From Saprospiraceae bacterium (GTDB lineage: Bacteria > Bacteroidota > Bacteroidia > Chitinophagales > Saprospiraceae), in contig DASXWI010000080.1 of assembly GCA_036503755.1 (NCBI GenBank), positions 1 to 48,435 on the forward strand: a DNA stretch of 48,435 nucleotides. Direction: 5' to 3'. The notes under the pieces were generated by a model, which was not told the DNA's origin, ran no database searches, and saw only the letters and a list, made by a program, of their open reading frames with translations. Position 1 is the stretch's first letter. Each line of letters begins with the position of its first letter. A program made the position numbers and the translations under genes. Below, in pieces: positions 10,310 through 28,246 of the stretch.

Positions 10310-10485
10310 CGGGGCCAAAGATACTTGAGAAAGCCATCTCGAATTTCTGCTATGATATTGATGAATTTTAATTTTAATACTTAATTATACCATCATCATT
10401 AGGGGTGTGGATTCGTGGATATTTATCTGTTCAAACATTTCCATATCCAAAACACCCTTTTTATGAACGTCAATTCACAGTATTA

Positions 10486-13733: not shown

Positions 13734-14603
13734 ATGACTAGTTTAACACATCGCATTTATATAAGTGTCCTTATTGCAATAGGGGTCATCACATTTATCC
13801 TACTGGTCTATTGGGGTTACTCCTACTATAATACAGGTATCGAAGAACGACCTTTTCATGAAGATCATACTGCATTAAAACCCAGCGGTCCGATAGGTCA
13901 CGGACTTGGCATCCTGGGCACCTTACTCATCCTCATAGGGGTATTTTCTTATATCGGAAGAAAGAAGAAAAAATTTCTTCCAAATTTTGGTGCCCTGAAA
14001 TATTGGCTCGAATTCCACATATTCCTGTGTTCGGTTGGTCCCTTGTTAATACTGTTTCATACAGCTTTTAAGTTCGGTGGTATAGTTTCTATAAGTTTCT
14101 GGAGCATGGTGGCGGTAGTTTTAAGTGGAATTATTGGCCGTTTCATCTATATACAAATTCCGAGGACAATCCAGGGACGGGAATTAAGCCTGGCAGAGAT
14201 CAAGGAGATGAAAGATGTCATGAACCGGGAATTGACCGAGAAGTATGGTTTGGATGAATCCATCTATTTCAGGTTGATCCATTCCACACAACTTGAATTT
14301 GAATATGCAGACAAAGACTTCTTGACAAGATCGATCAAAAGAATCGCACATCATCGACAGGTAAAACAGGAGGTGAATAAAATTCTGCAGCAAACCAAGT
14401 TAGCCCATCGGGAAAAACGGGGAGTAATGAAATTAGTAAATAACGAAATGACGATCAACAACAAGATCAGGCGATTACATACAATGCAAATGCTTTTTAA
14501 ATACTGGCATGTAGCCCATCTTCCGTTTGCGTTGATCATGCTTATCATCATGGTGATTCATGTAGCGATTACGATTGCCTTTGGGTATAAATGGATTTTT
14601 TAA
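13734..14603 (+). CDS. Five-TM membrane protein with a long cytoplasmic helical loop; candidate di-heme b transmembrane electron carrier
   Basis: TM helices at about aa 7-28, 57-75, 91-112, 117-140 and 258-284. TM3 carries His95 and His109; TM5 carries His262 and His276 (both H-x13-H), plus His259. RKKKK follows TM2 and the aa 141-257 loop is basic, which places those regions in the cytoplasm. The heme-b role is inference. Confidence 0.6.
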   Translation: MTSLTHRIYISVLIAIGVITFILLVYWGYSYYNTGIEERPFHEDHTALKPSGPIGHGLGILGTLLILIGVFSYIGRKKKKFLPNFGALKYWLEFHIFLCSVGPLLILFHTAFKFGGIVSISFWSMVAVVLSGIIGRFIYIQIPRTIQGRELSLAEIKEMKDVMNRELTEKYGLDESIYFRLIHSTQLEFEYADKDFLTRSIKRIAHHRQVKQEVNKILQQTKLAHREKRGVMKLVNNEMTINNKIRRLHTMQMLFKYWHVAHLPFALIMLIIMVIHVAITIAFGYKWIF

Positions 14604-14604
14604 A

Positions 14605-15945
14605 ATGGAAGTGTTCCTCGAGAAGACAATTATTTATTCCATTGTAGCAGGGCTCATTATGCTGACCCTGTATATTTATGTAAGAAAACTTCAAAGTACA
14701 ACCAGAAAAACAGAAGCCAAGATCCATAAAGCGAAAGAGGAGGGATTACATGAGCCCGTCTCGCTTCATCCGGAAATAGATGTGAATACCTGCATTCAAA
14801 GCGGAGCTTGTATAGAGGCTTGTCCGGAAAAAGAAATCATTGGCATCCGGAATGGGAAAGCAACACTGATCAATGCATCACGATGTGTGGGGCATGGGGC
14901 TTGTTTCCATGCATGTCCGGTTGAAGCTATTTCCCTTGTCATTGGAACAGAAAAAAGAGGAGTAGATCTCCCGCATATTAAGCAAGATTTTGAAACCAAC
15001 GTTAAAGGCATTTATATAGCCGGCGAACTTGGCGGGATGGGGTTGATTAAGAATAGTGTTGAACAAGGCAAGCAAGCCGTGAACAATATCGCCCGTGCGG
15101 TTTCGAAAGCAAAAGAAACAGAATATGACCTGGTGATTGTTGGTGCAGGACCCGCAGGAATTTCTGCCTCCCTCGAAGCTAAAAAGCAAGGATTAAAATG
15201 TATTACACTTGAGCAGGATACACTTGGAGGTACGGTCTTTTCTTTTCCAAGATCCAAGATTGTGATGACCTCCCCGATGGATCTCCCTTTGTTCGGAAAA
15301 GTAAAACTGACAGAAACTAAAAAATCTGAACTACTTGATCTGTGGAACAAAGTATTAGGGAACAATCAAATAGTGATAAAGGAAAACACCAAGGTTGAAT
15401 CCATTTCAAAAGCCGGCGAACATTTTAGAATAGTGGTAAATGAGGGAGAAGAATATATCACCAAATCGGTTCTGCTAGCCATTGGAAGAAGAGGTTCACC
15501 CAGAAAACTAAATGTGGCAGGGGAACATCTGGAAAAGGTAGCCTATCGTCTGTTAGAACCGGAATTGATTGAAGGGAAAAATATCGTCGTTGCCGGAGGC
15601 GGTGATTCAGCAATTGAGGCGGCACTCTCCTTGGCGGATCATAACAAAGTAGTACTTACCTACCGGGGGGAAGCGTTTCAACGAATTAAACCAAAGAACA
15701 GTGAGAAAATAAACCAGGCGATCGCAGATCAGAAAATAGACGTCATCTTCAATTCAACTATAGCCTTAATAGAGAAAGAGAATGTAACCCTGACACTTCC
15801 AAATAACGATAAGGTTAAGATACCTAATGACCTGGTTTATATTTTTGCAGGAGGAGAATTGCCAACACAGTTTTTACAAAAAGCAGGAATTGAAATTACG
15901 ACCCGATTTGGACATGCGCTGTTGAAACATGGGAAAAACAGGTAA
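14605..15945 (+). CDS. Membrane-anchored ferredoxin-like domain fused to a thioredoxin-reductase-type FAD/NAD(P)H oxidoreductase with no redox CxxC
   Basis: I prefer the ATG at 14605, 1 nt after the upstream stop. One N-terminal TM helix is followed by a basic stretch. There are two Fe-S-like motifs, CIQSGACIEACP and CVGHGACFHACP. FAD motif DLVIVGAGPAGISAS; NAD(P)H motif KNIVVAGGGDSAIEAA. Confidence 0.75.
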   Translation: MEVFLEKTIIYSIVAGLIMLTLYIYVRKLQSTTRKTEAKIHKAKEEGLHEPVSLHPEIDVNTCIQSGACIEACPEKEIIGIRNGKATLINASRCVGHGACFHACPVEAISLVIGTEKRGVDLPHIKQDFETNVKGIYIAGELGGMGLIKNSVEQGKQAVNNIARAVSKAKETEYDLVIVGAGPAGISASLEAKKQGLKCITLEQDTLGGTVFSFPRSKIVMTSPMDLPLFGKVKLTETKKSELLDLWNKVLGNNQIVIKENTKVESISKAGEHFRIVVNEGEEYITKSVLLAIGRRGSPRKLNVAGEHLEKVAYRLLEPELIEGKNIVVAGGGDSAIEAALSLADHNKVVLTYRGEAFQRIKPKNSEKINQAIADQKIDVIFNSTIALIEKENVTLTLPNNDKVKIPNDLVYIFAGGELPTQFLQKAGIEITTRFGHALLKHGKNR

Positions 15946-15946
15946 T

Positions 15947-17794
15947 ATGCTCAGAACGAAAACATATTTCTTTTTTTGGTGCTTCCTTCTTTCAGGGCTA
16001 ATCGTCGTTTTATATAGTGGAAATGCATGTGGTCAGATATCACCGGGAGATCTTTCCAATCCTCATGCCCATCTTGAGGGAATACTCAACTGCACCAAGT
16101 GCCATGTATTGGGTGAAAAAGTAACCAACGAAAAATGTCTTGATTGCCACAAAGAAATCAAATCGCGTGTTGATCAGAAAAAGGGATACCATGCTTCGGC
16201 AGAGGTAACCGGAAAGGATTGTTTTTCCTGTCATAGCGATCATCATGGAAGGCAGTTTGAAATCATACGTTTTGACACAGAAAAATTCAATCACCAGCTT
16301 ACAGGATATAAACTAACCGGTGCCCATGCTAAGGTAGATTGTAAAGCTTGTCACAAGGATGAAAGAATAGAATCTGCTGAGCTTCGAAAGAAAGAGGAGA
16401 CCTATCTTGGTTTAAAAAACGAATGTGTAGCCTGTCATAAAGATGTCCACAGAAACACACTTTCTACGGATTGCAAATCTTGTCACAACACAGATGCTTT
16501 CGCGCCTGCTACGCTGTTTGACCATGCTAAAACAGACTTTCCGCTCAAAGGCAAACACAAAGAAGCGGATTGTAACCGTTGCCATGAAGTAACCTTCGAA
16601 AACAGTGCACTCTATCAGCGGTTTTCAGGTGTCCCGTTTAATAGTTGTGTAGTCTGCCATGATGATGTACATCATGGCCGCCTTGGAACAGATTGTAAAG
16701 AATGTCATACCGAAACATCCTTTACTGTCTTTGCGGGCAAGAGTACTTTCAACCATAGCGAAACCGATTTTCCATTACTAGGCAAACATAGAATACTCGA
16801 TTGCGCAGCATGTCATAAAACAGGAGCGGAGACCACTGCAGATAGGGTTTTCAAGGATTATTCAGCAAAGGATTTCAACGCCTGTATAACATGCCATGAT
16901 GATGTTCATGAATCAAGACTTGGTACAGATTGCAGGAGGTGTCATACCGAAGAGTCCTTTCAAAAACAAAGGAATGCCGAAAACTTTGATCACACCCTGA
17001 CAGGATATGTGCTTGAAGGGAAACACAAGAAGGTGGATTGTAAATCCTGCCATACATCCAAAATGACAGATCCGCTTCTTCACAATCGTTGTGCAGACTG
17101 TCATGAGGATTTTCATAAAGGTCAGTTCATCAACGAAACCAAAAATCCAGACTGCAGGATTTGTCACAATACAGAAGGATTTTCAGGTTCTGTGTATACC
17201 ATTGAAATGCACAATGAAGGTTCTTTTCCTTTAACGGGTGCACACCTGGCGACACCATGCAATGCGTGTCACCAAAAAAATGATGAATGGACATTTAGAA
17301 ATATAGGTACTCAATGTGTCGATTGTCACACGGATTTACACGAAGGTTTTCTGTCGGAGAAATACTATCCCAAGAAATCATGTAACCAATGTCATATACC
17401 TGATGCCTGGACAGAAGTAGATTTTGAACACCAACAAACCGGATTCAAACTTGAAGGAAAGCATTTGCAAACCTCCTGCACAACGTGCCACAAGTCAGAT
17501 CCTGTTGAAAAAAGTAAAATTCCTTTTACAGGCCTCAATACTGAATGTACAAGCTGTCATGATAACGCCCATGATCGCCAATTTGAGATTGACGGCGTTA
17601 CAGATTGTAGACGTTGCCATTTATTTGAAACATGGAAGCCAAGCCAGTTTGATCATAACACCGCAAGGTTTGTATTGGATGGAAAACACAAACAGGTTGA
17701 TTGCCGTGAATGCCATCGATCTGAAACAATTGATGGAAGGGAAATCATCCAATACAAACTTGATGATTTCACTTGCGCGGCGTGTCACCTTTAA
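15947..17794 (+). CDS. Multiheme cytochrome c with 23 CXXCH motifs, built from cytochrome c7/c3-like repeats
   Basis: I counted 23 CXXCH in about 615 aa. The recurring unit is CxxCHxDVHxxxLGxDCxxCH...FxHxxTxFxLxGKHxxxxCxxCH. Signal peptide MLRTKTYFFFWCFLLSGLIVVLYSGNAC (possible lipobox). The ATG at 15947 lies 1 nt after the upstream stop; the track start at 15929 would overlap. Confidence 0.9.
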   Translation: MLRTKTYFFFWCFLLSGLIVVLYSGNACGQISPGDLSNPHAHLEGILNCTKCHVLGEKVTNEKCLDCHKEIKSRVDQKKGYHASAEVTGKDCFSCHSDHHGRQFEIIRFDTEKFNHQLTGYKLTGAHAKVDCKACHKDERIESAELRKKEETYLGLKNECVACHKDVHRNTLSTDCKSCHNTDAFAPATLFDHAKTDFPLKGKHKEADCNRCHEVTFENSALYQRFSGVPFNSCVVCHDDVHHGRLGTDCKECHTETSFTVFAGKSTFNHSETDFPLLGKHRILDCAACHKTGAETTADRVFKDYSAKDFNACITCHDDVHESRLGTDCRRCHTEESFQKQRNAENFDHTLTGYVLEGKHKKVDCKSCHTSKMTDPLLHNRCADCHEDFHKGQFINETKNPDCRICHNTEGFSGSVYTIEMHNEGSFPLTGAHLATPCNACHQKNDEWTFRNIGTQCVDCHTDLHEGFLSEKYYPKKSCNQCHIPDAWTEVDFEHQQTGFKLEGKHLQTSCTTCHKSDPVEKSKIPFTGLNTECTSCHDNAHDRQFEIDGVTDCRRCHLFETWKPSQFDHNTARFVLDGKHKQVDCRECHRSETIDGREIIQYKLDDFTCAACHL

Positions 17795-17878
17795 CTGAAT
17801 AATTCGTAGTAAACCAGGCTCATACATATAGTACCCCCTTCTTTGAGCGGCAAGATGGGTAAACCAATCAAAGATTTA

Positions 17879-17909
17879 TTGAAAAATACAGACTGAATAT
17901 TTACATTTG
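17879..17909 (+). promoter_or_regulatory. Candidate Bacteroidota sigma-A promoter: TTG (17879-17881), 20-bp spacer, TACATTTG (17902-17909)
   Basis: Matches the published -33 TTTG / -7 TAnnTTTG pattern. It lies about 120 bp upstream of the 61-heme gene in a 234-bp intergenic gap. Confidence 0.25.
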
Positions 17910-18028
17910 TAATCCACACCACAGGAAGTATTCAAAAAATACGTCCAAAAGCCTTACCCATATTCAATTTCTATCCTCGTCGGAGTTCCGGCAGGGCAGG
18001 ATTTGTTTATGGGTTATATCTAAATGGG

Positions 18029-21000
18029 ATGAACCGGATAAAAGGTGTTGTGAGTGGAATCTTGATGTTGTGCGCCTATACGTACATAGGCGGGCAATCT
18101 CCGCATGGTCAGGAACTCCGGATCAGTTGTGATGCCTGCCATACTTCTGAAGGTTGGAATATTAACAAAGACTCCATAGCGTTCCTCCACAACACAACTA
18201 CATTTCCACTAGAAGGCCAACACGAAGTAATTGACTGTAGACAATGTCATACCTCACTTGAATTTAAAAAAGCTGAATCCAATTGTGCGTCATGCCACCT
18301 TGATATTCATCAGAATACTGTAGGAGATGAATGCGCCAGGTGCCATGATTCCAACACCTGGCTTGTTAACAATATAGCGGAGATCCATCGGCAGATTTCT
18401 TTCCCACTTCAAGGTGCGCATGCTGTTGCCAACTGTGTAGAGTGTCATACTTCAGATTCAGAATTAAGATTTGACCCGATCGCGTCAGATTGCTATAGTT
18501 GTCACCAGGATGATTATGGAGCTACCACAAACCCCGAACATCAGAAAGCTGGATTTTCAACGGACTGCATTACCTGCCACCAGGTAGATGCTTTTGCCTG
18601 GGATGCTGAAGGGATTAACCACGATTTCTTTCCGCTAACTGCGGGTCACCAAATTGATGAATGTGCGAAGTGTCACACCGGAGCGGATTACACTAAAATT
18701 TCACCCGAGTGCATTACTTGTCATGAACAGGATTATCTGGCAACTACCAATCCAAATCATCAGGTTGCAGGGATAAGCACTAATTGTGTGGAATGCCATA
18801 CAACACAACCGGATTGGAAACCAGCCGACTTCCGGGAACACGACAATCTTTATTTTCCAATATATAGTGGAGCACACAAAGGAACCTGGGACCAATGTTT
18901 AGCGTGCCATACGGATCCAAATAATTATACCAGTTTTACCTGTATATCCTGTCATGCTAATCCGGATACTGATAACGAACATAGCGGAGTGTTTGGATAT
19001 TCATACAACAGCACAGCATGCCTGGCATGTCACCCAAATGGGGAGAAGGAGGGCTCGTTTAATCATGACAACACCAACTTTGCTTTGACAGGTGCACACA
19101 CGATGGTGGAATGCCTTCAATGCCACAGCAATGGATTTACAGGGACGCCAACAGCTTGTTTTGCCTGCCATGAACCGGACTTTAATCAATCTACCAACCC
19201 AAACCACTCAAGTCTAGGACTTTCGACAGATTGTGTTTCATGTCACACCACGGATCCTGAATGGAACCCGGCTTCATTTGACAATCATAATGAATTTTAT
19301 GTGTTGAATGGTGCTCATGCCATCATAGCCAATCAGTGTGCATCGTGTCATAACGGAGATTATAATAACACGCCATCCACATGCGTGGGTTGTCACCAGG
19401 AGGATTATAATCAGACCACAACTCCATCGCATACCGCGCTATCCTTTTCAACAGAGTGCAGCATGTGTCACAATGAAAATGCGTGGGTGCCATCCTCCTT
19501 TGATCATGACGGCCAGTATTTTCCGATTTATAGCGGATCACACCAGGGAGAATGGGCTGATTGTATTGATTGTCATACCACACCAGGAAATTTTGCACTA
19601 TTTACTTGTGTGACTTGCCATGCCAATCCGGAAACCACGGAAGAACATACCGGAGTCGCCGGTTATCTCTACAACAGCAATGCCTGTCTTGCGTGTCATC
19701 CAAATGGAGAAGCAGATGGTGCCTTTGATCATAGTACCACCAATTTTCCACTGACGGGTGCGCATCAAACAGTTGATTGTTTCCTGTGCCATGTTAGTGG
19801 CTTTGAAGGAACGCCAACAGATTGTCAAAGCTGTCACACTCCTGATTTTAACCAGGCCTCAAACCCTAATCATAACGCCCTTGGTTTTTCTATTGATTGT
19901 GCCACATGCCACACTACAGCGCCTGGGTGGAATCCTGCGTCTCTCGACAATCACAATGATTATTATGTACTATCCGGAGCACATGCTGTAGTAGCCAATC
20001 AATGTGCATCCTGCCACAATGGTGATTATCTCACCACACCTAATACTTGCTCAGGTTGTCATCAGGAAGATTTCAATCAAACGGTAAACCCGCCGCACCT
20101 GGCTCTTCAGTTTTCAACAGATTGCGCAAGTTGCCATAGTGAATCTGCCTGGACACCTTCAACATTTGAACACGATGTGCAATATTTCCCGATTTATTCA
20201 GGAGCGCATCAGGGAGCCTGGACACAATGCAATGAATGCCACACCACACCAGGAAATTATTCACTTTATACATGCACAACCTGCCATACTAGTCCTGAAA
20301 CAGATGAAGAACATGCTGGTGTGAACGGCTTTATTTTTAACAGCACAGCTTGTCTTGCCTGTCATCCAACCGGGGAAAGTGATGTTAATTTTGATCACAA
20401 CACCACCTCCTTTCCATTGACAGGTGGACACAATGGACCCACATGCCTGGAGTGCCACGCTACAGGATTTGAAGGAACCCCGACAGAATGTAGCGCATGC
20501 CATCTTGATGATTTCAACCAGGCCATCAATCCAAACCATTTGACGCTGGGCATATCAAATGATTGCGCATCGTGTCATACCACTGAACCGGGATGGTCAC
20601 CAGCATCGTTTGCTGTACACAATGATTATTATCCATTTAATGGTGCACATATCCCAATAGCAAATCAATGTGCTACCTGTCATAACGGAGACTACAATAC
20701 TACACCAAACACTTGTGCAGGTTGCCACCAGGAAGATTATAATCAAACAACGGATCCATCGCACCTGGCACTTCAGTTTTCACAAGATTGCGCAAGTTGT
20801 CATTCGGAAAACGCATGGGAACCATCAACCTACGATCATGATGCACAGCACTTCCCGATTTACAGCGGATCCCATCAGGGAGTCTGGACACAATGCAATG
20901 AATGCCACACCACACCAGGAAATTATACTTTGTTTACCTGTGTCACTTGCCATACCAATCCTGAAACCAATGATGAACATGCCGGGGTGAATGGCTATTC

Positions 21001-22606
21001 ATACAACAGCAATGCATGCCTGGCTTGTCATCCTAATGGAGAGGGTGAGTTTGGTTTTGATCACAACAACACCAGCTTTCCACTTACGGGTGCCCATACC
21101 ACTATAAACTGCCTGGATTGTCATGCCAATGGATATGAAGGAACACCAACTGATTGTGCGGCATGCCATACAACACATTACAACGAAAGTACCAATCCAA
21201 ACCATAGTGCACTTGGCATTCCAACAGACTGCGTTTCTTGTCACACGACAGCTCCTGAATGGAATCCGGCTGCCTTTCCGCTCCATAACAATTATTACAC
21301 ACTAGCAGGAGCACATTCCTTAATTGCAGATCAATGTGTCACTTGTCATCAGGGCGATTATAACAACACTCCTAATACTTGCGTCGGTTGTCATCAAGCG
21401 GATTACAATCAAACAACCAACCCCAACCATTTAACCTTACAAATCTCCACGGATTGTGCTAGTTGTCATTCAGAAAGCAACTGGATACCTGCAAGTATGT
21501 CCAATCATAATGATTATTATGTTCTCCAAGGTGCGCATGCTCCTATTTCAAATGAATGTGCGCAATGTCATAATGGAAATTATAACAACACTCCAAATAC
21601 CTGTTATGGCTGTCATCAGGAAGATTATGAGCAAGCTAATAATCCTTCACATCTATCACTTGGATTTGGAACCGACTGTACGACTTGTCACACAGAGACA
21701 GCGTGGTCACCGGCAGAATACACCGATCACGATGACCAATATTTCCCCATATACAGTGGTGGGCACGAGGGAGCATGGGATCAGTGTAATGACTGCCACA
21801 CCAATCCAAACAACTACTCCATATATACCTGTGTGACTTGTCACACCAGCGGTGAAACTGGCCAGCAACATGTCGGAGTCAACGGCTATTTTTATGAGAG
21901 TGGTGCATGTCTCGCATGTCATCCCGATGGAGATACACAAGGATCATTCAATCACAATGATTCTGATTTTCCACTGACAGGGGCACATAATACGGTAGCC
22001 TGTATAGAATGTCACAGCAATGGCTATCAGAACACCCCCACGGCATGTAGTGCCTGTCATACGCCAGATTTCAACGGGTCAACCAATCCAAACCATAATT
22101 CCCTGGGATTATCAATGGAGTGTGTGACGTGTCACACTACAGCTCCTGAGTGGAACCCGGCTTTATTTCCAGATCATAATGATTATTATCCGCTGGTAGG
22201 GGCGCATGCCGCGATATCAGATCAATGCGTCACGTGTCACAATGGAAACTATAATAACACACCAAACACGTGTGTTGGCTGCCACCAATCTGAATACAAT
22301 AACACGAACGATCCTGATCACCAGGCAGCGCAATTCCCAACCAGTTGTGAAACCTGTCATAATCAAAATGCCTGGGTTCCATCCACCTGGGATCATGATG
22401 ATCTCTATTTCCCGATTTACAGCGGGAAACATGAAGATGAATGGAATCAATGTAATGACTGTCACACCAATCCAAATAATTATTCTGTGTTTACCTGTAT
22501 CACGTGTCATCAGCAAAATGAAACCGATGAGGATCATGATGAAGTAGGTGGATATCAATACAACAGTAGCGCTTGCCTGGCGTGTCACCCGGATGGCGAA
22601 GACTAA
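18029..22606 (+). CDS. Giant multiheme cytochrome c with 61 CXXCH motifs in 1525 aa
   Basis: ATG start with signal peptide MNRIKGVVSGILMLCAYTYIGGQ. By hand count, the motifs fall in six regions:
- N-terminal region, aa 1-342: 13
- module 343-564: 9
- module 565-785: 9
- module 786-1007: 9
- module 1008-1304: 12
- module 1305-1525: 9
As far as I can see, every Cys outside the signal peptide lies in a CXXCH. No T9SS C-terminal domain is present. Confidence 0.92.
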   Translation: MNRIKGVVSGILMLCAYTYIGGQSPHGQELRISCDACHTSEGWNINKDSIAFLHNTTTFPLEGQHEVIDCRQCHTSLEFKKAESNCASCHLDIHQNTVGDECARCHDSNTWLVNNIAEIHRQISFPLQGAHAVANCVECHTSDSELRFDPIASDCYSCHQDDYGATTNPEHQKAGFSTDCITCHQVDAFAWDAEGINHDFFPLTAGHQIDECAKCHTGADYTKISPECITCHEQDYLATTNPNHQVAGISTNCVECHTTQPDWKPADFREHDNLYFPIYSGAHKGTWDQCLACHTDPNNYTSFTCISCHANPDTDNEHSGVFGYSYNSTACLACHPNGEKEGSFNHDNTNFALTGAHTMVECLQCHSNGFTGTPTACFACHEPDFNQSTNPNHSSLGLSTDCVSCHTTDPEWNPASFDNHNEFYVLNGAHAIIANQCASCHNGDYNNTPSTCVGCHQEDYNQTTTPSHTALSFSTECSMCHNENAWVPSSFDHDGQYFPIYSGSHQGEWADCIDCHTTPGNFALFTCVTCHANPETTEEHTGVAGYLYNSNACLACHPNGEADGAFDHSTTNFPLTGAHQTVDCFLCHVSGFEGTPTDCQSCHTPDFNQASNPNHNALGFSIDCATCHTTAPGWNPASLDNHNDYYVLSGAHAVVANQCASCHNGDYLTTPNTCSGCHQEDFNQTVNPPHLALQFSTDCASCHSESAWTPSTFEHDVQYFPIYSGAHQGAWTQCNECHTTPGNYSLYTCTTCHTSPETDEEHAGVNGFIFNSTACLACHPTGESDVNFDHNTTSFPLTGGHNGPTCLECHATGFEGTPTECSACHLDDFNQAINPNHLTLGISNDCASCHTTEPGWSPASFAVHNDYYPFNGAHIPIANQCATCHNGDYNTTPNTCAGCHQEDYNQTTDPSHLALQFSQDCASCHSENAWEPSTYDHDAQHFPIYSGSHQGVWTQCNECHTTPGNYTLFTCVTCHTNPETNDEHAGVNGYSYNSNACLACHPNGEGEFGFDHNNTSFPLTGAHTTINCLDCHANGYEGTPTDCAACHTTHYNESTNPNHSALGIPTDCVSCHTTAPEWNPAAFPLHNNYYTLAGAHSLIADQCVTCHQGDYNNTPNTCVGCHQADYNQTTNPNHLTLQISTDCASCHSESNWIPASMSNHNDYYVLQGAHAPISNECAQCHNGNYNNTPNTCYGCHQEDYEQANNPSHLSLGFGTDCTTCHTETAWSPAEYTDHDDQYFPIYSGGHEGAWDQCNDCHTNPNNYSIYTCVTCHTSGETGQQHVGVNGYFYESGACLACHPDGDTQGSFNHNDSDFPLTGAHNTVACIECHSNGYQNTPTACSACHTPDFNGSTNPNHNSLGLSMECVTCHTTAPEWNPALFPDHNDYYPLVGAHAAISDQCVTCHNGNYNNTPNTCVGCHQSEYNNTNDPDHQAAQFPTSCETCHNQNAWVPSTWDHDDLYFPIYSGKHEDEWNQCNDCHTNPNNYSVFTCITCHQQNETDEDHDEVGGYQYNSSACLACHPDGED
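19055..22603 (+). repeat. Five tandem coding repeats (about 666 bp / 222 aa, nine hemes each) inside the 61-heme gene; the fourth carries an extra internal copy of about 222 bp
   Basis: The module consensus recurs in the protein: NFPLTGAH..C..CH..GF.GTPT.C..CH.PDFNQ..NPNH, then YFPIYSG.H.G.W..C..CHT, then ACLACHP.GE. An identical 43-nt run occurs at 20218-20260 and 20884-20926, exactly 666 bp apart. Confidence 0.9.
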
Positions 22607-22625
22607 TGAAAGCAGGAAGAAAGGA

Positions 22626-24254: not shown

Positions 24255-24325
24255 CGATGATTCCTTTGGTTATGCAGGCGATGCGCAGTATCTTAAAGGT
24301 TTATTTATTAAATAATCTACCACAC

Positions 24326-25063
24326 ATGAAAACGTTTATATACCTCTTGTTATTAAGTGCCCTGGTTTGGTCATGTGATTCAAAACCAAAAGTCATTGAA
24401 TCGGTTGATGCCACTGAAGAAACACAACAAGATGCTTCTGATCCAAATGCATCAAAATTGCATAAGGTCGTAGTAGAAGAAGTCCTGCAGACATCAAAAT
24501 ATACATATCTGAACGTAACGGAAGATGGAGCGAAAATCTGGATTGCTGTGCCCAAAAAGGATGTTAAAGTCGGGGGTACGTATTATTACCGAGGTGGTTT
24601 GAAAAAGAACAATTTCAAGAGTGTGGAATTTGATCGTGTATTTGAAACATTATATCTCGTTTCCGATGTAAGTGAAGATCCGGGATTGGGCGGGATGACA
24701 GGCAGCAGCCCACATGGTGGAAAAGCAGAGGAACCTCAACTTGATCAAACCACTAAATTAGATCCACCACCAGGAGGCATTTCAATTGCCGAATTATTTA
24801 AGAACCGTCAGAAATATGAGGGACAAACCGTCAAGATCAAAGGAAGGTGTGTTAAACTCAACACGAACATCATGAACCGCAACTGGATTCATCTTCAGGA
24901 TGGATCTATGACCGATGAGCAAATTGATCTTACTGTGACGACTACAGACAAAGTAGCATTAGGTGAAATAGTAACCTTTGAAGGAAAGATTACCCTGAAT
25001 AAAGATTTTGGTGCAGGGTATAAATATGAAATCATCATGGAAGAAGCCCATCTCTTACCATAA
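24326..25063 (+). CDS. Lipoprotein with two OB-fold-like halves, function unknown
   Basis: The ATG at 24326 gives MKTFIYLLLLSALVWSCDSK (lipobox Cys). Two halves have similar beta-rich patterns (TYLNVTEDGAKIWIAVP... and TVKIKGRCVKLNTNIMNRNWIHLQDGS...). The OB-fold call is pattern-based only. Confidence 0.45.
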   Translation: MKTFIYLLLLSALVWSCDSKPKVIESVDATEETQQDASDPNASKLHKVVVEEVLQTSKYTYLNVTEDGAKIWIAVPKKDVKVGGTYYYRGGLKKNNFKSVEFDRVFETLYLVSDVSEDPGLGGMTGSSPHGGKAEEPQLDQTTKLDPPPGGISIAELFKNRQKYEGQTVKIKGRCVKLNTNIMNRNWIHLQDGSMTDEQIDLTVTTTDKVALGEIVTFEGKITLNKDFGAGYKYEIIMEEAHLLP

Positions 25064-25129
25064 CAATTCATCCCCAGGCCAGGGCTATTACCCAACCTGG
25101 TGCGGATGTACTCAGTCTAATTAAAAAAC

Positions 25130-28100
25130 ATGAAACGTTTATTTAATTCTTTTTTCTCTACCAGCGCAGCAGGCCTTTATATGATCCTGTTTGCCCTGGC
25201 CATCGGTGTGGCTACGTTTGTGGAAAACGATTTTGGTACCAGTGCAGCCCAAAAGGTCATCTTTAAGGCCAGATGGTTTGAACTCCTCCTGGTTCTTTTT
25301 GGTATCTCTATAGCAGCCAATATTGTTCGATATAAAATGGTCCGTCAGAAAAAATGGGCCATCCTTACATTCCACGCTTCTATCTTAATCATATTACTGG
25401 GAGCAGGTATCACCCGATATTTCAGTTACGAGGGGATGATGCATATTCGTGAAGACAGCACATCAAACACATTTATTTCGGCAGATACCTATCTCAACTT
25501 TGAAGCTAAACAACATGGCAAGAAATTCCTTTTTAATGAACCTGTCCTTTTTGCATCCCTTGGTAAAAACAAATTCAAGGAAACCTACCAGATCGGAAAT
25601 GATATCATAGACGTCGAATTAGATGCCTTTATACCCAATCCGGAAAATACACTGGAGGCGATACCCGATGGTAACGCGGTTTTAAAACTAGTGATTGCCG
25701 GAATGAATGGACGCGAAGAATATTATCTCGAAGAAGGAGATTTCGTCAACCTGAATGGAACCTGGTTTAATTTCGGCAACCCGGAGCAACCCCAGGCAAT
25801 CAATATGTATTACCGGAATGACTCCCTGGTGATGAAATCACCTGAAGTCCTTGCGCATATGGTAATGGCTACACAAGCGAAAGACACTATTTACCCCGGA
25901 GCGTATGTACCCTTAGTGATCCGGTCACTGTATTCCAATGCCAACATCAATTTTGTGATTGGTGATTTTAATCCAAGCGCGAAGCTGATGATGAAATCGG
26001 CTGGACCCAAAATGAAAAGTGAAAGCATCGCGGCACTCAAATTGAAAATCAGCATCAACGGGACCCCTTCAGATATCTATGTATACGGAAACAAAGGGAT
26101 AGAAGGAAAACCGGAAAAAGCAAGGGCCGGTGATACAGAGCTTTCCATTTCTTATGGTGCCAAACAGATCAGCCTCCCATTCTCTCTGAAGTTGCGTGAT
26201 TTTATTCTTGAGCGGTATCCAGGAACGAACAGTGCTTCCTCCTACGCTAGCGAAGTGACACTGATCGATCCAGCAAAAGGGATCAATAAGGAGCAACGCA
26301 TCTATATGAACAACATCCTGGATTATGGAGGATATAGGTTTTTCCAATCTTCCTTTGACCAGGATGAATTGGGGACCGTTCTTAGTGTAAATCATGATTT
26401 CTGGGGTACATGGATTTCGTATATCGGCTATGCCTTACTGACGATAGGGCTGATTCTCACCTTATTCAGTAAAAAGAGCAGGTTCAGTGAAATTTCAAGG
26501 AAACTGGATGAAATCCGCCAGGTAGAAAAGAAAGGTGCCATGTCGGGAATCACTATAATGATGTTGTTCCTTTCTACCGGGTCACTTTTTGGCAACAGCA
26601 TCAACGAATCACCACGACATAGTGTGTCCAAAGCACATGCTGCCTTGTTTGGCCGCCTTGTGGTCCAGGATGATAATGGAAGGATGAAACCAATGAATAC
26701 CCTTTCCAGTGAAGTGATGCGTAAAGTGGCAAGGAAAGAAAGTTTGTTTGGACTTACGGCGGATCAAATCTTCCTCGGCATGACGTTGTATCCGGAAGAG
26801 TGGACGCAGATGCCGATGATTAAAATCGGATCAAACGAAGAGATCAGAAAACTCATTCCTGCCAAAGGAGAATTAGCTTCTTTCAATGATTTTTTTACAT
26901 CCAGTGGTCAATATGTTTTACGGGAACAAGTCCGCAGGGCGTATAGCTTGCAGCCAATTGACAGAACATTGATGGATAAGGAAATCATGAAGATCGATGA
27001 GCGTGTCAATATCTGTAACATGATCTTTAGTGGAGCAATGGCGCGGATATATCCTATAGAAAACCATCCAGGGGATCATTGGATTTCTCCAGCAGATGTA
27101 TTTAAACAAACTGCCGATATCAGTCCGGATCCATTTGTCAGGGGGTTTTTTCCAACATACGTTACTGCTGTACAGGAAGCCATGGCAGATGGAAACTGGA
27201 GTAAGGCGGATCAACAGGTCGAAGCACTTCAACAATTTCAGCATGCTAAAGGTGGAGACATTGTGGTTTCGCAGCGAAGGATTGATATGGAAATCCTGCT
27301 CAACAAGATGAATGTCTTTTCAAGACTGAGTAAGGGCTATGGATTAATTGGGCTCGTCTTTTTGATATTGTTTTTCACGCAGGTTTTTAAACCCGGCCTG
27401 AATCTAAAGACACCAACGCGAATCACCTTTTTTATTCTGGCTGCTTTCTTTCTCCTGCACACGGCAGGGCTGGGGATCAGGTGGTATGTTTCCGGTCGTG
27501 CGCCATGGAGCAATGGGTATGAGTCCATGATTTATATAGGGTTCACCACGGTATTGGCCGGATTGATTTTTGCAAGAAATTCATTAGGCGGATTAACAGC
27601 TACAAGCATATTGGCATCTACCATTCTCATGGTGGCAGGGTTGAGCTGGCTTGATCCCGAAATCACCCCATTAGTTCCAGTCCTTAAATCGTATTGGTTA
27701 ACTATTCATGTATCCATGGAAGCTGGTAGTTATGGTTTTTTAATGTTGGGAGCGATCATTGGGTTGTTGAATCTTATTCTCATGATCTTTCTCAACAAGT
27801 CAAATGAGACACGCTTATTCCGGACGATTAAGGAGATGACCTATGTTAGTGAGATGACCCTGATCGGCGGATTGATCATGGTCAGTATTGGGACTTACCT
27901 GGGTGGAGTATGGGCCAATGAATCGTGGGGAAGATACTGGGGATGGGATGCCAAAGAAACGTGGGCATTGGTGACTATACTTGTGTATGCGTTTATTCTT
28001 CACATGAGATTTATACCAGGATTAAGAGGATTGTATGCATTCAATGTAGCGTCCTTGTTTGGATTTGCATCCGTCATGATGACATATTTTGGAGTGAACT

Positions 28101-28246
28101 ACTATCTATCTGGTCTTCACTCGTATGCTGCAGGAGATCCGGTACCTTTGCCCCCTTCTGTTTATTATACAGCTGCAGTGTTTCTTGCTTCCAGTTTATT
28201 AGGATATTGGAAATACAGGAGACATCATCCCCCGATGCATGTTTAA
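25130..28246 (+). CDS. ccsBA: System II cytochrome c biogenesis protein, fused CcsB(ResB)-CcsA heme lyase
   Basis: 1038 aa. The N-terminal part is ResB-like, with TM helices and a large periplasmic domain. The C-terminal part is polytopic and carries the WWD motif WGRYWGWDAKETWALV, with conserved His in flanking helices. Confidence 0.9.
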   Translation: MKRLFNSFFSTSAAGLYMILFALAIGVATFVENDFGTSAAQKVIFKARWFELLLVLFGISIAANIVRYKMVRQKKWAILTFHASILIILLGAGITRYFSYEGMMHIREDSTSNTFISADTYLNFEAKQHGKKFLFNEPVLFASLGKNKFKETYQIGNDIIDVELDAFIPNPENTLEAIPDGNAVLKLVIAGMNGREEYYLEEGDFVNLNGTWFNFGNPEQPQAINMYYRNDSLVMKSPEVLAHMVMATQAKDTIYPGAYVPLVIRSLYSNANINFVIGDFNPSAKLMMKSAGPKMKSESIAALKLKISINGTPSDIYVYGNKGIEGKPEKARAGDTELSISYGAKQISLPFSLKLRDFILERYPGTNSASSYASEVTLIDPAKGINKEQRIYMNNILDYGGYRFFQSSFDQDELGTVLSVNHDFWGTWISYIGYALLTIGLILTLFSKKSRFSEISRKLDEIRQVEKKGAMSGITIMMLFLSTGSLFGNSINESPRHSVSKAHAALFGRLVVQDDNGRMKPMNTLSSEVMRKVARKESLFGLTADQIFLGMTLYPEEWTQMPMIKIGSNEEIRKLIPAKGELASFNDFFTSSGQYVLREQVRRAYSLQPIDRTLMDKEIMKIDERVNICNMIFSGAMARIYPIENHPGDHWISPADVFKQTADISPDPFVRGFFPTYVTAVQEAMADGNWSKADQQVEALQQFQHAKGGDIVVSQRRIDMEILLNKMNVFSRLSKGYGLIGLVFLILFFTQVFKPGLNLKTPTRITFFILAAFFLLHTAGLGIRWYVSGRAPWSNGYESMIYIGFTTVLAGLIFARNSLGGLTATSILASTILMVAGLSWLDPEITPLVPVLKSYWLTIHVSMEAGSYGFLMLGAIIGLLNLILMIFLNKSNETRLFRTIKEMTYVSEMTLIGGLIMVSIGTYLGGVWANESWGRYWGWDAKETWALVTILVYAFILHMRFIPGLRGLYAFNVASLFGFASVMMTYFGVNYYLSGLHSYAAGDPVPLPPSVYYTAAVFLASSLLGYWKYRRHHPPMHV

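Follow-up and report, generated by a model that had tools for sequence, protein, structure and literature searches.

A PCC3-type multiheme cytochrome cluster widespread in Bacteroidota, with a conserved Fe-S flavoprotein as a candidate NAD(P)H input module

Organization of the Gene Cluster

The window examined here is a 48,435-nucleotide stretch of DNA from a Saprospiraceae bacterium (contig DASXWI010000080.1), in which seven genes lie co-directionally on the + strand. [quoted passage not shown] A check of open reading frames and translations across the window reproduces the coordinates, strands, and spacings of the original prediction, with successive intergenic gaps of 1, 1, 234, 19, 71, and 66 nt. 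The sole sizeable gap is the 234-bp spacer between g3 and g4 (17795–18028, + strand), in which neither a terminator-like site on the + strand nor an Rfam family match was found. The sequence TAcaTTTG at 17903–17910 in this spacer is a candidate that resembles the Bacteroidota -7 promoter element.

The flanking genes are Bacteroidota-type (CHU_C T9SS domain, DUF4294), and a ctaA gene (COX15-CtaA) is located at 9257–10318 on the - strand. The host is a Saprospiraceae-like member of the Bacteroidota with aerobic capacity, in line with the aerobic Bacteroidota host that had been proposed. Searches of Pfam, NCBIfam, and Foldseek indicate that the cluster resembles none of the Mtr, Cbc, NapC, or NrfD systems, consistent with the earlier remark that the usual parts are missing. 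Furthermore, none of the seven proteins (0/7) reaches the curated cut-off of any matched NCBIfam cytochrome family; the best scores in the cluster against the DmsE-family decaheme are 46.9 and 78.8 bits versus a cut-off of 192.2.

Conservation and Synteny

A search of the species-genome collection with the g5 barrel gave at least 538 hits. Of these, 80 loci were retrieved, each of Bacteroidota type, and a match to the g4-type cytochrome is present in 78. The genes g1-g2-g3-g4-g5 keep this collinear order in all informative loci (43/43), defined as those with enough flank upstream of a complete g3 to show both g1 and g2. The Bacteroidota carriers are found among the Saprospiraceae, Marinilabiliales, Prolixibacteraceae, Lentimicrobiaceae, and Emticicia, and they include hosts from activated sludge and other fluctuating habitats. 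Cultured carriers include Mariniphaga sediminis SY21, in which unrelated housekeeping genes lie on both sides of the set, and Emticicia oligotrophica DSM 17448, in which all seven genes are found together on plasmid pEMTOL02 and g7 adjoins g1 on its upstream side.

Relatives of the cluster are also present in Krumholzibacteriota and Calditrichota. A second set of 80 loci, retrieved with divergent g1 and ranging in GC content from 0.30 to 0.74, contains g1 followed by a 17-, 20-, or 23-heme g3-type cytochrome, a variable cytochrome, and the barrel. In these loci g2 follows either g1 or the barrel, and it is present wherever the locus spans the whole set. Other phyla keep the set with g2 relocated behind the barrel, ~8–10 kb from g1, with the cytochrome and barrel genes in between. 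The envelope-spanning cytochrome cluster is coherent, and its core survives gene-order rearrangement across phyla.

Relation to PCC3

While the original reading of the cluster as a coherent, trans-envelope set of genes is borne out, its description as undescribed is not. The architecture is that of PCC3, a layout predicted in Proteobacteria by He et al. in 2017 (PMC5566968), and cytochromes with ‘61 and 20’ hemes in a Lentimicrobium MAG received a passing mention in 2026 (PMC13013709). PCC3 combines a ~300-aa inner-membrane protein (IMP) with two W-x3-H-x13-H motifs and an SGxxG motif, a porin, and two cytochromes, one periplasmic with ~21 hemes and the other giant and variable (PMC5566968), and this four-part architecture is common to both systems. 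Follow-up work on PCC3 has been carried out in Gallionellaceae (PMC10734462, PMC8788666), and the system has been called ‘functionally unverified’ (10.1101/2025.02.27.639646). In contrast to PCC3, which was earlier reported only from Proteobacteria, the cluster is widespread in Bacteroidota. The g2-type flavoprotein is a feature of the Bacteroidota cluster, whereas published PCC3 descriptions give four genes without a flavoprotein (PMC5566968, PMC10734462, 10.1101/2025.02.27.639646, PMC8788666). What is new is the widespread distribution in Bacteroidota, the constant g2, the collinear core, the pairing of a fixed g3 with a variable g4, and the cultured carriers.

The Inner-Membrane Protein and the Fe-S Flavoprotein

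The g1 protein possesses five TM helices and a variable cytoplasmic helical insert of ~110 aa (residues 141–250). The two H-x13-H pairs noted originally are H95/H109 and H262/H276, each within a predicted TM helix and each part of a conserved motif: W91-x3-H95-x13-H109 in TM3 (14004–14060, + strand) and W258-x3-H262-x13-H276 in TM5 (14505–14561, + strand). Together with the SGxxG motif in TM4 (S131-G-I-I-G135; 14124–14138, + strand), these features fit the definition of the PCC3 IMP, including its size (PMC5566968). Seven His are invariant in the syntenic orthologues (n = 44); in relatives at 27–49% identity the invariant His are H95, H109, H262, and H276 only. In distant relatives G132 and G135 of the SGxxG motif are invariant and S131 is nearly so. 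Invariant throughout the family are Gly, Pro, Trp, and Tyr residues in addition to the four heme-type His, and none of these indicates a quinone site. Judging from the K+R densities of the loops, the N-terminus and the insert are cytoplasmic, and in this topology each pair has one His near each membrane face. No Pfam or NCBIfam family is matched by g1 at E ≤ 0.01; weak sub-threshold matches are consistent, to DUF4405 in 27/28 members and to Ni_hydr_CYTB in 22/28. The AlphaFold2 model is all-helical with moderate confidence (pLDDT 65.7), and Foldseek found no PDB match to it. The four invariant His, the weak DUF4405/cytochrome b561 matches, the topology, and the PCC3 IMP motifs suggest that g1 is a putative di-heme cytochrome b.

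The g2 protein contains an N-terminal TM anchor helix, a two-cluster ferredoxin-type domain, and an FAD-NAD(P) domain, in agreement with its initial assignment as a membrane-anchored ferredoxin-like/FAD-NAD(P)H oxidoreductase. Pfam matches are to Pyr_redox_3 (148 bits), Pyr_redox_2, and Fer4 families, while the best PDB relatives are YpdA/Bdr (7a7b; 2e-27) and a TrxR-type ferredoxin-NADP reductase (3ab1; 1e-16); the FAD-NAD(P) domain is TrxR-type FNR/YpdA-like. A CxxC redox disulfide was not found in g2, and six Cys are invariant. The catalytic domain is predicted to face the cytoplasm because K+R is enriched after the TM helix (mean of 0.48 before versus 7.5 after; 48 orthologues). The Fe-S motifs are non-canonical, C63-x2-S66-x2-C69-x3-C73-P and C94-x2-H97-x2-C100-x3-C104-P (14791–14919, + strand), with Ser/Thr at position 66 in 47/48 orthologues and an invariant H97. 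The g2 proteins of distant lineages retain the second motif as CxxHxxCxxxCP in 29/31, and the variable position of the first motif is Cys in 14 and Ser/Thr in 16.

The start of g2 lies 1 nt past the g1 stop, and no complete locus lacks g2, whichever the gene order. Remote proteobacterial g1 relatives (Qipengyuania, Alteromonas plasmids) are flanked by a small multiheme cytochrome and a FAD_binding_6 + NAD_binding_1 + Fer2 reductase; this FNR-type NAD(P)H/2Fe-2S reductase is non-homologous to g2 and of the same functional type. Since g2 is constant in the Bacteroidota clusters, these comparisons suggest NAD(P)H rather than quinones as the direct source of electrons, lending support to the pyridine-nucleotide input put forward originally. 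The alternative is that g1, as a di-heme cytochrome b, links the menaquinone pool to the heme wire, with g2 auxiliary or regulatory and not the main donor. H-x13-H di-heme bundles (hydrogenase cytochrome b/b561, DUF4405) are typically quinone-reactive, and it is these families that g1 weakly resembles. A quinone-active cytochrome b was proposed for PCC3 by He et al. (PMC5566968), the published four-gene descriptions lack a flavoprotein, and the ~8–10 kb separating g2 from g1 in one arrangement is also in keeping with a quinone link. However, the presence of g2 in all complete loci, its position directly behind g1 in the window, the unrelated NAD(P)H-flavin-FeS reductase at the equivalent place beside remote g1 relatives, and invariant residues that suggest no quinone site make this alternative unlikely.

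The Multiheme Cytochromes

The predicted 84 heme-c sites are all present, as 23 CXXCH motifs in g3 and 61 in g4. When each protein was shuffled 2000 times, the chance expectation was below one motif per protein (mean 0.27, maximum 4 for g3; mean 0.77, maximum 5 for g4). CX3CH, CX4CH, and CXXCK motifs were not found in either protein. Outside the motifs there are 27 His in g3 and 63 in g4, sufficient for bis-His ligation, and the heme density is 26.7 and 25 aa per heme, respectively.

The g3 protein has Pfam matches to Cytochrome_C7, c3, and MtrC/MtrF II-IV, and its gene has an alternative ATG at 15929 that overlaps g2. In the g3 orthologues a cleavable signal peptide precedes the mature N-terminus Q(I/L)SPG(D/E)L, and no lipobox was found in them. 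They fall into classes of 17, 20, and 23 hemes with almost identical spacing, whereas the heme number of g4 orthologues varies between 13 and 85, with several giant cytochromes in tandem in some Saprospiraceae; g3 is the fixed-length component and g4 the variable-length one. The g4 repeat array (18353–22573, + strand) is built of triheme modules with CXXCH spacings of ~35/15/25, which form six to seven super-repeats (222 aa, 9 hemes), one with an extra triheme module. The identity among super-repeats U1–U6 is 52–72% in protein and 59–70% in DNA, while U0, at the N-terminal end, has diverged further (35–45% and 56–59%). The super-repeats are old, diverged duplications and not assembly artefacts. 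The g4 orthologues have a signal peptide, a mature N-terminus of (Q)SPHG, and an end directly past the last CxxCHPxG. No lipobox, T9SS C-terminal domain, or other export signal was found in them; consequently, surface exposure of g4 is unsupported beyond the adjacency of the barrel gene, which g4 immediately precedes in all lineages (by 19 nt in the window).

The Barrel, the Lipoprotein, and the Heme Lyase

The g5 protein is an outer-membrane beta-barrel, as expected. It consists of a signal peptide, a small N-terminal beta domain (aa 25–95), a disordered linker (aa 99–138), and a 22-stranded barrel (aa 144–541; AlphaFold2 mean pLDDT 81), modeled without a plug-like insert and ending in ...QRF with a C-terminal Phe. 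The 50 Foldseek matches listed are all large barrels of a generic kind (FimD/PapC, Occ porins; TM ≤ 0.51), and MtrB is not among them. No sequence match was found in Pfam, NCBIfam, or the PDB, and the 1922 homologues are unannotated.

The missing export signal of g4 has to be weighed together with this barrel. It would fit a role of g3 and g4 as a periplasmic heme ‘capacitor’ during transient shortage of oxygen or another acceptor, with the barrel anchoring the complex or admitting small acceptors or shuttles, an idea raised for PCC3 (PMC10734462). The free variation in heme number (13–85, tandem giants) suits capacity rather than a fixed distance, and many hosts are aerobic and live in fluctuating habitats. 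Against such a buffer, the barrel is conserved as much as the cytochromes and invariably follows the g4 gene, and 22 strands without a plug-like insert exceed the size needs of a solute porin, so that we regard it as quite unlikely.

The g6 lipoprotein, recognized as such from the outset, has a lipobox (...VWSC) with a predicted lipidated Cys17 and two conserved beta-rich halves. Its orthologues mostly have a lipobox, replaced in some Bacteroidales by an N-terminal anchor helix. Weak matches are to a GW domain (17/17 members) and an OB-fold (tRNA_anti-like; 9/17), and RefSeq labels the Emticicia copy ‘GW dipeptide domain-containing protein’. It is the next gene after the barrel in 36/69 loci and is an accessory of about half of them. 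The g7 protein is indeed a CcsBA heme lyase, a fusion of ResB (Pfam, 80.5 bits) and Cytochrom_C_asm (132 bits) with a WWD-type stretch (WGRYWGWD) and a score of 177.7 bits against TIGR03144, slightly below the cut-off of 187.6. It adjoins the cluster in 19/80 loci, all of Saprospiraceae/Chitinophagales types, and is a lineage-specific companion.

Proposed Mechanism

The best reading, to which we give moderate credence, is that the cluster is an FCB-superphylum version of a PCC3-type porin-cytochrome conduit with an extra NAD(P)H input module, operating outward and independently of quinones. First, NAD(P)H would be oxidized at the FAD of g2, and electrons would continue via two Fe-S clusters, one of them His-ligated. 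Next, g1 would take electrons from g2 across the membrane through two putative b-type hemes, with H95/H262 on the cytoplasmic side and H109/H276 on the periplasmic side, bypassing the quinone pool. The soluble 23-heme g3, with its fixed length, would span the periplasm, and g4 may dock in or thread through the g5 barrel and then either store electrons or hand them to an acceptor that is external or insoluble. The g6 protein would be an accessory lipoprotein, while g7 would serve the heavy heme load as a dedicated heme lyase. If this is true, the cluster would on balance regenerate NAD(P)+ through an electron outlet that conserves no energy. Several points weigh against this proposal: g1 lies below every curated family threshold and its moderate-confidence model has no structural match, a quinone site in g1, which would suit the quinone-active cytochrome b of He et al., is compatible with the data, g5 shows no specific similarity to MtrB among the Foldseek matches listed, and an NAD(P)H-wasting outlet has no obvious use in many hosts that are aerobic, with ctaA nearby.

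Flow in the opposite direction, with the conduit oxidizing Fe(II), Mn(II), minerals, or a cathode, was first proposed for PCC3, which was discovered in genomes of Fe(II) oxidizers and is carried by an Erythrobacter Mn(II) oxidizer. To our knowledge, no lithotroph is known among the named Bacteroidota hosts. With g2 as partner, reduction of NAD(P)+ (-320 mV) by Fe(II), at about 0 mV or above, would be strongly uphill and against the membrane potential. Multiheme conduits can work in either direction (PMC10734462), but in Sideroxydans ES-1 PCC3 is downregulated on Fe(II) (PMC8788666), which argues against iron oxidation in that organism and says nothing positive on function. Electron uptake is thus improbable.

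NADPH oxidases (NOX/FRD) pass electrons from NAD(P)H and flavin through two stacked b-hemes to the exterior, and the arrangement of the cluster fits this logic. Exported electrons could then make extracellular superoxide, with possible uses such as Mn(II) oxidation, polymer attack, or antagonism; many carriers are aerobic, PCC3 is present in the Mn(II)-oxidizing Erythrobacter, and NOX/FRD was also cited by He et al. (PMC5566968). However, superoxide production would require neither an 84-heme chain nor an outer-membrane barrel, and no Pfam Ferric_reduct match was found in the cluster. Many carriers also belong to lineages known as anaerobic fermenters, such as Lentimicrobiaceae and other Bacteroidales, and we consider this role highly improbable. 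Circumstantial support for the outward conduit comes from the sole Lentimicrobium MAG reported with such a cluster, which was recovered from conductive-carbon incubations only (PMC13013709).

Organization of the Cluster

The seven co-directional ORFs at 13734–28246 on the + strand form a real, conserved, envelope-spanning cytochrome system whose architecture is that of PCC3, the porin-cytochrome cluster type already proposed by He et al. 2017 (PMC5566968), and for which a pyridine-nucleotide input is plausible. [quoted passage not shown] The intergenic gaps are, in order from g1 to g7, 1, 1, 234, 19, 71, and 66 nt. Coordinates and spacing are exactly those of the original prediction, and its CXXCH counts hold as well: shuffling each protein 2000 times gave means of 0.27 (g3) and 0.77 (g4) motifs and maxima of 4 and 5, respectively. 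The variant motifs CX3CH, CX4CH, and CXXCK are absent from both cytochromes. Family scans place g1, g5, and g6 in no curated family. The cluster is flanked by housekeeping genes (AlaDH/PNT upstream, MutY downstream), and the window also contains ctaA (9257–10318) and Bacteroidota markers such as the CHU_C T9SS domain and DUF4294.

Distribution and Gene Order

The distribution of the cluster was examined using a barrel-profile scan of one genome per GTDB species, which returned at least 538 matching stretches. The best 80 of these are all Bacteroidota-type, with the addition of one MAG labelled Chlorobiota, and their carriers are Saprospiraceae, Chitinophagales, Bacteroidales, Marinilabiliales, Prolixibacteraceae, Lentimicrobiaceae, Draconibacterium, and Mariniphaga sediminis SY21. 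Abundant wastewater, sediment, and freshwater lineages are included. The closest genomes among the best 80 belong to Saprospiraceae, one of which has the cluster in the same chromosomal neighborhood. Synteny across Bacteroidota, which the original prediction had named as a check, is maintained in the core, as g1 and g2 are present and collinear in 43/43 loci that have a complete g3-type gene and at least 2.4 kb of upstream sequence. In M. sediminis the unit consists of g1–g6 and is bounded by M23 peptidase and citrate synthase genes. Literature searches on the physiology of the carrier genera yielded circumstantial community data only.

A metagenome search with four divergent g1 sequences retrieved 80 loci with GC contents of 0.30–0.74. 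In these loci g1 is followed by a g3-type cytochrome with 17, 20, or 23 hemes, a variable cytochrome (16–73 hemes), and the barrel. Every locus that covers the whole set also contains g2, located downstream of either g1 or the barrel. The order g1-g2-g3-g4-g5 in Bacteroidota contrasts with g1-g3-g4-g5-g2 in Krumholzibacteriota-type loci. The named relatives of the divergent loci are Krumholzibacteriota and Calditrichota, and the high-GC relatives, considered as a link to proteobacterial PCC3, are from these phyla or from unclassified MAGs.

In an annotated plasmid collection, plasmid pEMTOL02 of Emticicia oligotrophica DSM 17448 carries ccsA-g1-g2-g3-g4-g5-g6, the whole set together with its own heme lyase, with g1 and g5 labelled 'hypothetical protein' in RefSeq. 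Searches of this collection with g1, g3, and g5 returned Emticicia and remote three-gene modules and nothing else. The cultured carriers M. sediminis SY21 and E. oligotrophica DSM 17448 make the function of PCC3 testable. A second possible redox/envelope module is found on pEMTOL02 (L162, NC_018749.1, 4112–10527, −), divergent from the ccsA-g1...g6 unit, and comprises an ECF sigma factor, an outer-membrane beta-barrel, a Rieske 2Fe-2S protein, a DUF5777 barrel, YceI, a c-type cytochrome domain protein, and a PAS sensor.

The Multiheme Cytochromes

Family scans indicate heme packing of the c7, c3, and MtrC-domain types in both cytochromes. The g3 protein has 26.7 aa per heme, and its triheme pattern recurs every ~75 aa. 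The g4 protein, with one heme per 25 residues, consists of triheme modules in six to seven super-repeats, each of 222 aa and nine hemes, and ends directly after the last heme motif. It contains 63 non-motif His for its 61 hemes, a number that fits putative bis-His ligation. The super-repeats U1–U6 share 52–72% protein identity and 59–70% DNA identity, and the N-terminal unit is more diverged. An assembly or repeat artefact as the source of the 61-heme ORF is ruled out by this modest DNA identity and is also countered by orthologues of similar design in hundreds of genomes.

Both cytochromes are predicted to be soluble Sec substrates. Their mature N-termini are conserved (QISPGDL... in g3, QSPHG... 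in g4), and the orthologues have plain signal peptides and no lipobox Cys, anchor, or T9SS C-terminal domain. Export through the T9SS or as lipoproteins is ruled out, as both the C-terminal domain and the lipobox are absent.

The two proteins follow a structural rule under which the length of one cytochrome is fixed, apart from steps of three hemes, and that of the other varies freely. Orthologues of g3 have 20 hemes (41 loci), 23 hemes (6), or 18 hemes (1), with the window g3 exceeding the 20-heme protein of M. sediminis by precisely one triheme module, and the heme spacing series is near-identical in other phyla. The barrel-adjacent cytochrome ranges from 13 to 85 hemes across loci. This rule fits a periplasm-spanning ruler and an extensible wire or store. 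The MtrA structure is said to measure ~8 nm for 10 hemes and that of GSU1996 reportedly ~12 nm for 12 hemes; by analogy, we estimate that 23 hemes would span roughly 18–23 nm, approximately the width of the periplasm, and 61 hemes roughly 50–60 nm if linear. A rival reading is a periplasmic capacitor, in which g3 and g4 would both stay in the periplasm as a heme store; the variable length of g4 is compatible with such a role, and a point against it is that the g4 gene is followed by that of the barrel in essentially all loci. In some Saprospiraceae and Chitinophagales loci (L001, L005, L006, L009/L081), two to five tandem giant cytochrome ORFs lie between g3 and the barrel, those of L001 having at least 59 and 70 hemes; some of the small fragments in L009, a long-read assembly, may be frameshift artefacts.

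The Barrel, Lipoprotein, and Heme Lyase

In the AlphaFold2 model of g5 (pLDDT 81), a disordered linker joins a small N-terminal beta domain to a barrel of 22 strands. Foldseek matches this model to FimD/PapC ushers, Occ porins, AlgE, MOMP, and other generic barrels (TM ≤ 0.51), and MtrB is absent among the 50 matches listed. PDB profile searches with g5 and g6 gave no meaningful matches. The possibility that g5 is an ordinary nutrient porin is ruled out by the position of its gene after the giant cytochrome in essentially all loci and is also countered by its membership in no porin family.

The g6 protein is a lipoprotein, in some Bacteroidales with an N-terminal anchor helix instead of the lipobox, that shows weak GW-like and OB-like signals and directly follows the barrel in 36/69 loci. 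The g7 protein is a fusion of ResB (80.5 bits) and CcsA (Cytochrom_C_asm, 132.1 bits), both above threshold, and scores 177.7 bits against TIGR03144 (cut-off 187.6). These two domains, together with a WWD-type stretch (WGRYWGWD), bear out the earlier assignment of g7 as a CcsBA system II cytochrome c synthase. The gene is adjacent in 19/80 loci (best 80 of at least 538), which are of Saprospiraceae/Chitinophagales types only.

Comparison with MtrCAB and Other Conduits

The window cluster and MtrCAB/MtoAB (Shewanella, Sideroxydans) share the same multiheme-cytochrome-in-barrel logic, and the Pfam pentaheme fold of MtrC/MtrF domains II/IV is recognized in g3 (44.6 bits) and g4 (89.4 bits, cut-off 30). 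In contrast to MtrCAB, there is no MtrA/DmsE decaheme here (TIGR03508: 46.9 bits for g3 and 78.8 for g4, cut-off 192.2), and the MtrB-type barrel has 26 strands rather than the 22 modelled for g5. The surface decaheme of MtrCAB (MtrC/OmcA) is a lipoprotein, whereas g3 and g4 have no lipobox and carry 23 and 61 hemes. The window cluster contains no CymA/NapC-type quinol dehydrogenase. Membership in the Mtr, NapC/CymA, NrfD, Cbc, and Ext systems is ruled out, as there is no above-threshold match to these families and no MtrB-like fold among the 50 Foldseek matches listed; the family scans agree with the first reading of the DNA, in which NapC/NirT/CymA, NrfD, Cbc-type, and MtrAB-like parts were absent.

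Comparison with PCC3

PCC3 and the window cluster share four parts and the order in which these occur (inner-membrane protein, periplasmic multiheme cytochrome, extracellular multiheme cytochrome, porin), the window genes being organized as g1-(g2)-g3-g4-g5. Clusters of the PCC3 type contain some of the largest multiheme cytochromes known. This four-part type was defined from Fe(II)-oxidizer genomes, was found only in Alpha-, Beta-, and Gammaproteobacteria, and was proposed to contain a quinone-active cytochrome b and to take up electrons (He et al. 2017, PMC5566968). Its inner-membrane protein has ~300 aa, five helices, SGxxG on TM4, and W-x3-H-x13-H on TM3 and TM5, and its 'periplasmic' cytochrome has a median of 21 hemes and its 'extracellular' cytochrome a median of 34 and a maximum of 85, with aa-per-heme ratios of 22–39 (PMC5566968). 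In Gallionellaceae the two cytochromes have 21/24/27 and 10–35 hemes (PMC10734462), and the PCC3 porin of L. cholodnii has 22 predicted strands (He et al. 2017, PMC5566968, supplement).

These features recur in the window. The g1 protein has the size, the five helices, the SGxxG, and both W-x3-H-x13-H motifs; g3 falls with the periplasmic cytochromes (about 21, or 21–27, hemes; ~26 aa per heme; repeats); g4 has a heme number within the 10–85 range, a low aa/heme ratio, and repeats; and g5 is an outer-membrane barrel with 22 strands in its model, as predicted for the L. cholodnii porin. About 25–27 aa per heme and a triheme step in the fixed cytochrome are common to both systems. By heme number and repeats, g4 is the counterpart of the PCC3 'extracellular' cytochrome, with a putative extracellular location. 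We therefore place the window cluster in the PCC3 type by its defining features, as distinct from demonstrated homology to references such as Slit_0867-0870 or L. cholodnii SP-6. Of the original interpretation, the conserved envelope-spanning cytochrome system stands and pyridine-nucleotide input is plausible, and the architecture called undescribed is one already proposed as PCC3, all of whose defining features are present.

Several differences set the two groups apart. The reported hosts of PCC3 are Proteobacteria, whereas the window type occurs in Bacteroidota and has relatives in Krumholzibacteriota and Calditrichota. Here the fixed cytochrome carries 17/20/23 CXXCH motifs compared to 21/24/27 hemes in Gallionellaceae PCC3, and this offset, read from motif counts, shows the window type to be at least a separate lineage. 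The g2 flavoprotein is constant here and receives no mention in the PCC3 literature compared (PMC5566968, PMC10734462, PMC8788666), and g6 and a dedicated CcsBA are extra relative to PCC3. What is new with respect to the known PCC3 is the phylum-level distribution, the constant NAD(P)H-type flavoprotein, g6 and CcsBA, the plasmid copy, and the cultured carriers. Predicted in 2017, PCC3 has stayed an orphan and is still termed functionally unverified (10.1101/2025.02.27.639646); with at least 538 barrel matches, its architecture reaches beyond Proteobacteria to Bacteroidota and other FCB phyla.

A 'giant PCC cluster' with adjacent 61- and 20-heme cytochromes and a porin has been described in a Lentimicrobium MAG of the Bacteroidales (Nat Commun 2026, PMC13013709). 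As described, its pattern of 20 hemes plus a variable cytochrome is that of the Lentimicrobiaceae loci L012 and L038 and of most Bacteroidales loci here. The Lentimicrobium paper gives no inner-membrane module, PCC3 link, or distribution.

The Inner-Membrane Protein g1

The g1 protein (289 aa) has five hydrophobic helices, the motifs W91-x3-H95-x13-H109, S131-G-x-x-G135, and W258-x3-H262-x13-H276, and a helical, charged, variable insert of ~110 aa between TM4 and TM5. Seven His are invariant in 44 syntenic orthologues. Because the invariant set shrinks to G59, Y73, H95, H109, G132, G135, P143, W258, H262, and H276 in relatives that are 27–49% identical, the paired H-x13-H histidines of TM3 and TM5 form the family core. 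Judged by Lys/Arg density, the N-terminus, TM2-TM3 loop, and insert all face the cytoplasm, and this topology predicts one putative heme near each membrane face, with H95/H262 inside and H109/H276 outside. The remaining three His, H6 (13749–13751), H56 (13899–13901), and H259 (14508–14510), are invariant in 44/44 Bacteroidota orthologues and not in distant relatives, and may form a clade-specific cofactor or contact site.

Weak matches of the g1 family to the di-heme cytochrome b families DUF4405 (27/28 members, best E 0.004) and Ni_hydr_CYTB, the prokaryotic cytochrome b561 (22/28 members, best E 0.005), are all below the gathering score, and none of the 28 members matches Ferric_reduct (PF01794) even at E ≤ 10. 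The AlphaFold2 model of g1, of moderate confidence (pLDDT 65.7), has no PDB fold match by Foldseek, and a PDB profile search returned noise only. An exhaustive profile search (E ≤ 1e-3) yielded 3012 g1-family clusters at 50% identity, whose members are nearly all stand-alone proteins of ~290 aa. Two proteins from the profile search, P0390 (886 aa) and P0317 (418 aa), join a g1 N-terminal half to a multiheme cytochrome or to the C-terminal portion of a g2-type flavin domain. These fusions were dropped as evidence for g1 coupling, as each has half a g1 and they resemble collapsed or mis-called operons.

The g2 Flavoprotein

Family scans identify a ferredoxin-type Fe-S domain and a Pyr_redox_3 flavin domain in g2. 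Since the K+R count is 0.5 before and 7.5 after the N-terminal helix, the catalytic part would be cytoplasmic. The Fe-S motifs, CxxS/TxxCxxxCP and CxxHxxCxxxCP, are conserved though non-canonical, and the His form is kept in 29/31 distant relatives. The nearest proteins to the flavin domain are YpdA/Bdr and TrxR-type ferredoxin-NADP reductases; the domain has no conserved Cys pair and no redox disulfide. Identity with the bacillithiol-disulfide reductase YpdA/Bdr (TIGR04018, 168 bits, cut-off 340) or with thioredoxin reductase (TIGR01292, 84 bits, cut-off 343; no conserved CxxC pair) is rejected, and the likeness to YpdA/TrxR is one of fold class only (Pyr_redox_3). Two FAD-motif-like stretches, GIYIAGELGG at 15019–15054 (residues 139–150), before the GxGxxG dinucleotide fold, and YIFAGGEL at 15841–15864 (residues 413–420), near the C-terminus, suggest that the flavin domain was partly duplicated or permuted.

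Comparison with NOX and Three-Gene Modules

In NOX/FRE and MsrQ-type enzymes, electrons pass from a cytoplasmic NAD(P)H-flavin to two b-hemes, stacked across the membrane and held by His pairs in two helices, and on to an outside acceptor. The arrangement proposed for g1 and g2 would follow the same functional logic, a comparison with NOX/ferric reductase also drawn by He et al. for PCC3 (PMC5566968). Membership in the NOX/ferric reductase family is ruled out, as Ferric_reduct is not matched and g2 is TrxR-type, not FNR-type. Of the five helices of g1, TM3 and TM5 carry the His pairs, both with H-x13-H spacing. In contrast to NOX, the dehydrogenase is a protein of its own here, a TrxR-type flavoprotein anchored in the membrane, and two Fe-S clusters are interposed. 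NOX-like superoxide production is a rival that this shared logic would allow; the acceptor here differs from that of NOX in being a multiheme cytochrome c.

A remote g1 relative also occurs in a three-gene module of Proteobacteria (reductase, H-x13-H membrane protein, small multiheme cytochrome). Plasmids of Qipengyuania and Alteromonas carry this relative (21–25% identity, tblastn E 1e-6 to 3e-4) between a flavo-Fe-S reductase of NAD(P)H type, which is cytoplasmic, and a multiheme cytochrome of the periplasm. The reductase (644–659 aa) is of the FNR type (FAD_binding_6, NAD_binding_1, and 2Fe-2S) and unrelated to g2, the membrane protein is shorter (about 240–250 aa), the cytochrome is small (264 aa in Alteromonas), and there is no barrel. 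The small cytochrome has 7–10 hemes in most examples (He et al. 2017, Supplementary Table 6), and for such porin-less clusters 'another redox protein' is mentioned with no identity in the table (He et al. 2017, PMC5566968). On A. macleodii pAlt83_a (L164, 9911–24599), the module and a 407-aa hypothetical protein lie immediately upstream of a [NiFe]-hydrogenase/hyp maturation cluster, a layout that recurs on seven A. macleodii plasmids.

Proposed Route of Electron Transfer

The reading with the best support is that the conduit begins with NAD(P)H in the cytoplasm. Electrons would enter from NAD(P)H at g2 (FAD, two Fe-S clusters), cross the inner membrane on the two putative b-hemes of g1, and pass to g3 as a fixed-length periplasmic wire and then to g4, a variable wire or store docked in g5, to reach an external acceptor; g7 would attach heme to the cytochromes. 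Heme b in g1, the g1-g2 contact, and surface exposure of g4 are putative.

The entry and the direction of flow each have a rival in the PCC3 model of He et al., which combines a quinone link with Fe(II) oxidation. The case for NAD(P)H over a quinone link is built on comparison: g2 is retained with the set across a change in gene order, a gap of 1 nt separates it from g1 in the window, its predicted catalytic domain faces the cytoplasm, and an unrelated NAD(P)H-flavin-FeS reductase fills the equivalent place next to remote g1 relatives. To our knowledge, the well-studied conduits (Mtr, Pcc/Omc, Cbc/ImcH) all begin at quinol dehydrogenases, and entry at NAD(P)H instead of the quinone pool, to which the constant g2 partner points, would be a different design. 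Electron uptake is the rival to outward flow, and here the basis is thermodynamic. We infer outward flow because, at about -320 mV, NAD(P)H would donate downhill to typical bis-His c-hemes and to environmental acceptors, and inward flow is disfavored because transfer from Fe(II) to NAD(P)+ is uphill and against the membrane potential. In Sideroxydans ES-1, PCC3 is downregulated on Fe(II) (PMC8788666).

A broader proposal is that g1 and g2 constitute a split, NOX-like, quinone-independent NAD(P)H:cytochrome c transmembrane oxidoreductase, an unrecognised exporter class that feeds PCC3-type wires and gives hundreds of FCB species an NAD(P)H-to-exterior route; we advance it tentatively, judging its chances to be somewhat short of even. 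The species concerned would be Bacteroidota and members of other FCB phyla, among them common aerobes and fermenters that are not counted as electroactive. Should the proposed mechanism prove right, extracellular electron transfer and redox buffering by Bacteroidota would belong in models of sediment, sludge, and bioelectrochemical communities.

Other Features of the Window

A scan of the cluster for sigma-70 promoters and terminators gave results at or below chance, the sigma-70 model being unsuited to Bacteroidota promoters, and an Rfam search matched no family. The 234-bp g3-g4 spacer contains TAcaTTTG (17903–17910), which is like the Bacteroidota -7 element and is a candidate internal promoter for g4–g7; the chance probability of one such match in a gap of this size is ~0.06. 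A 979-aa protein (29442–32381, −) and a 481-aa protein (3530–4975, +) match no Pfam family above threshold and show faint MORN_2 and PMT_2 matches only. A 1315-aa protein (38724–42671, −) carries a CHU_C type IX secretion signal domain, indicating that the host has a T9SS; neither g3 nor g4 carries this domain. Finally, a gene of the 23S rRNA intervening-sequence protein family (45648–46052, +; PF05635, 100 bits) is located near a gene for an HlyD-type membrane-fusion protein.
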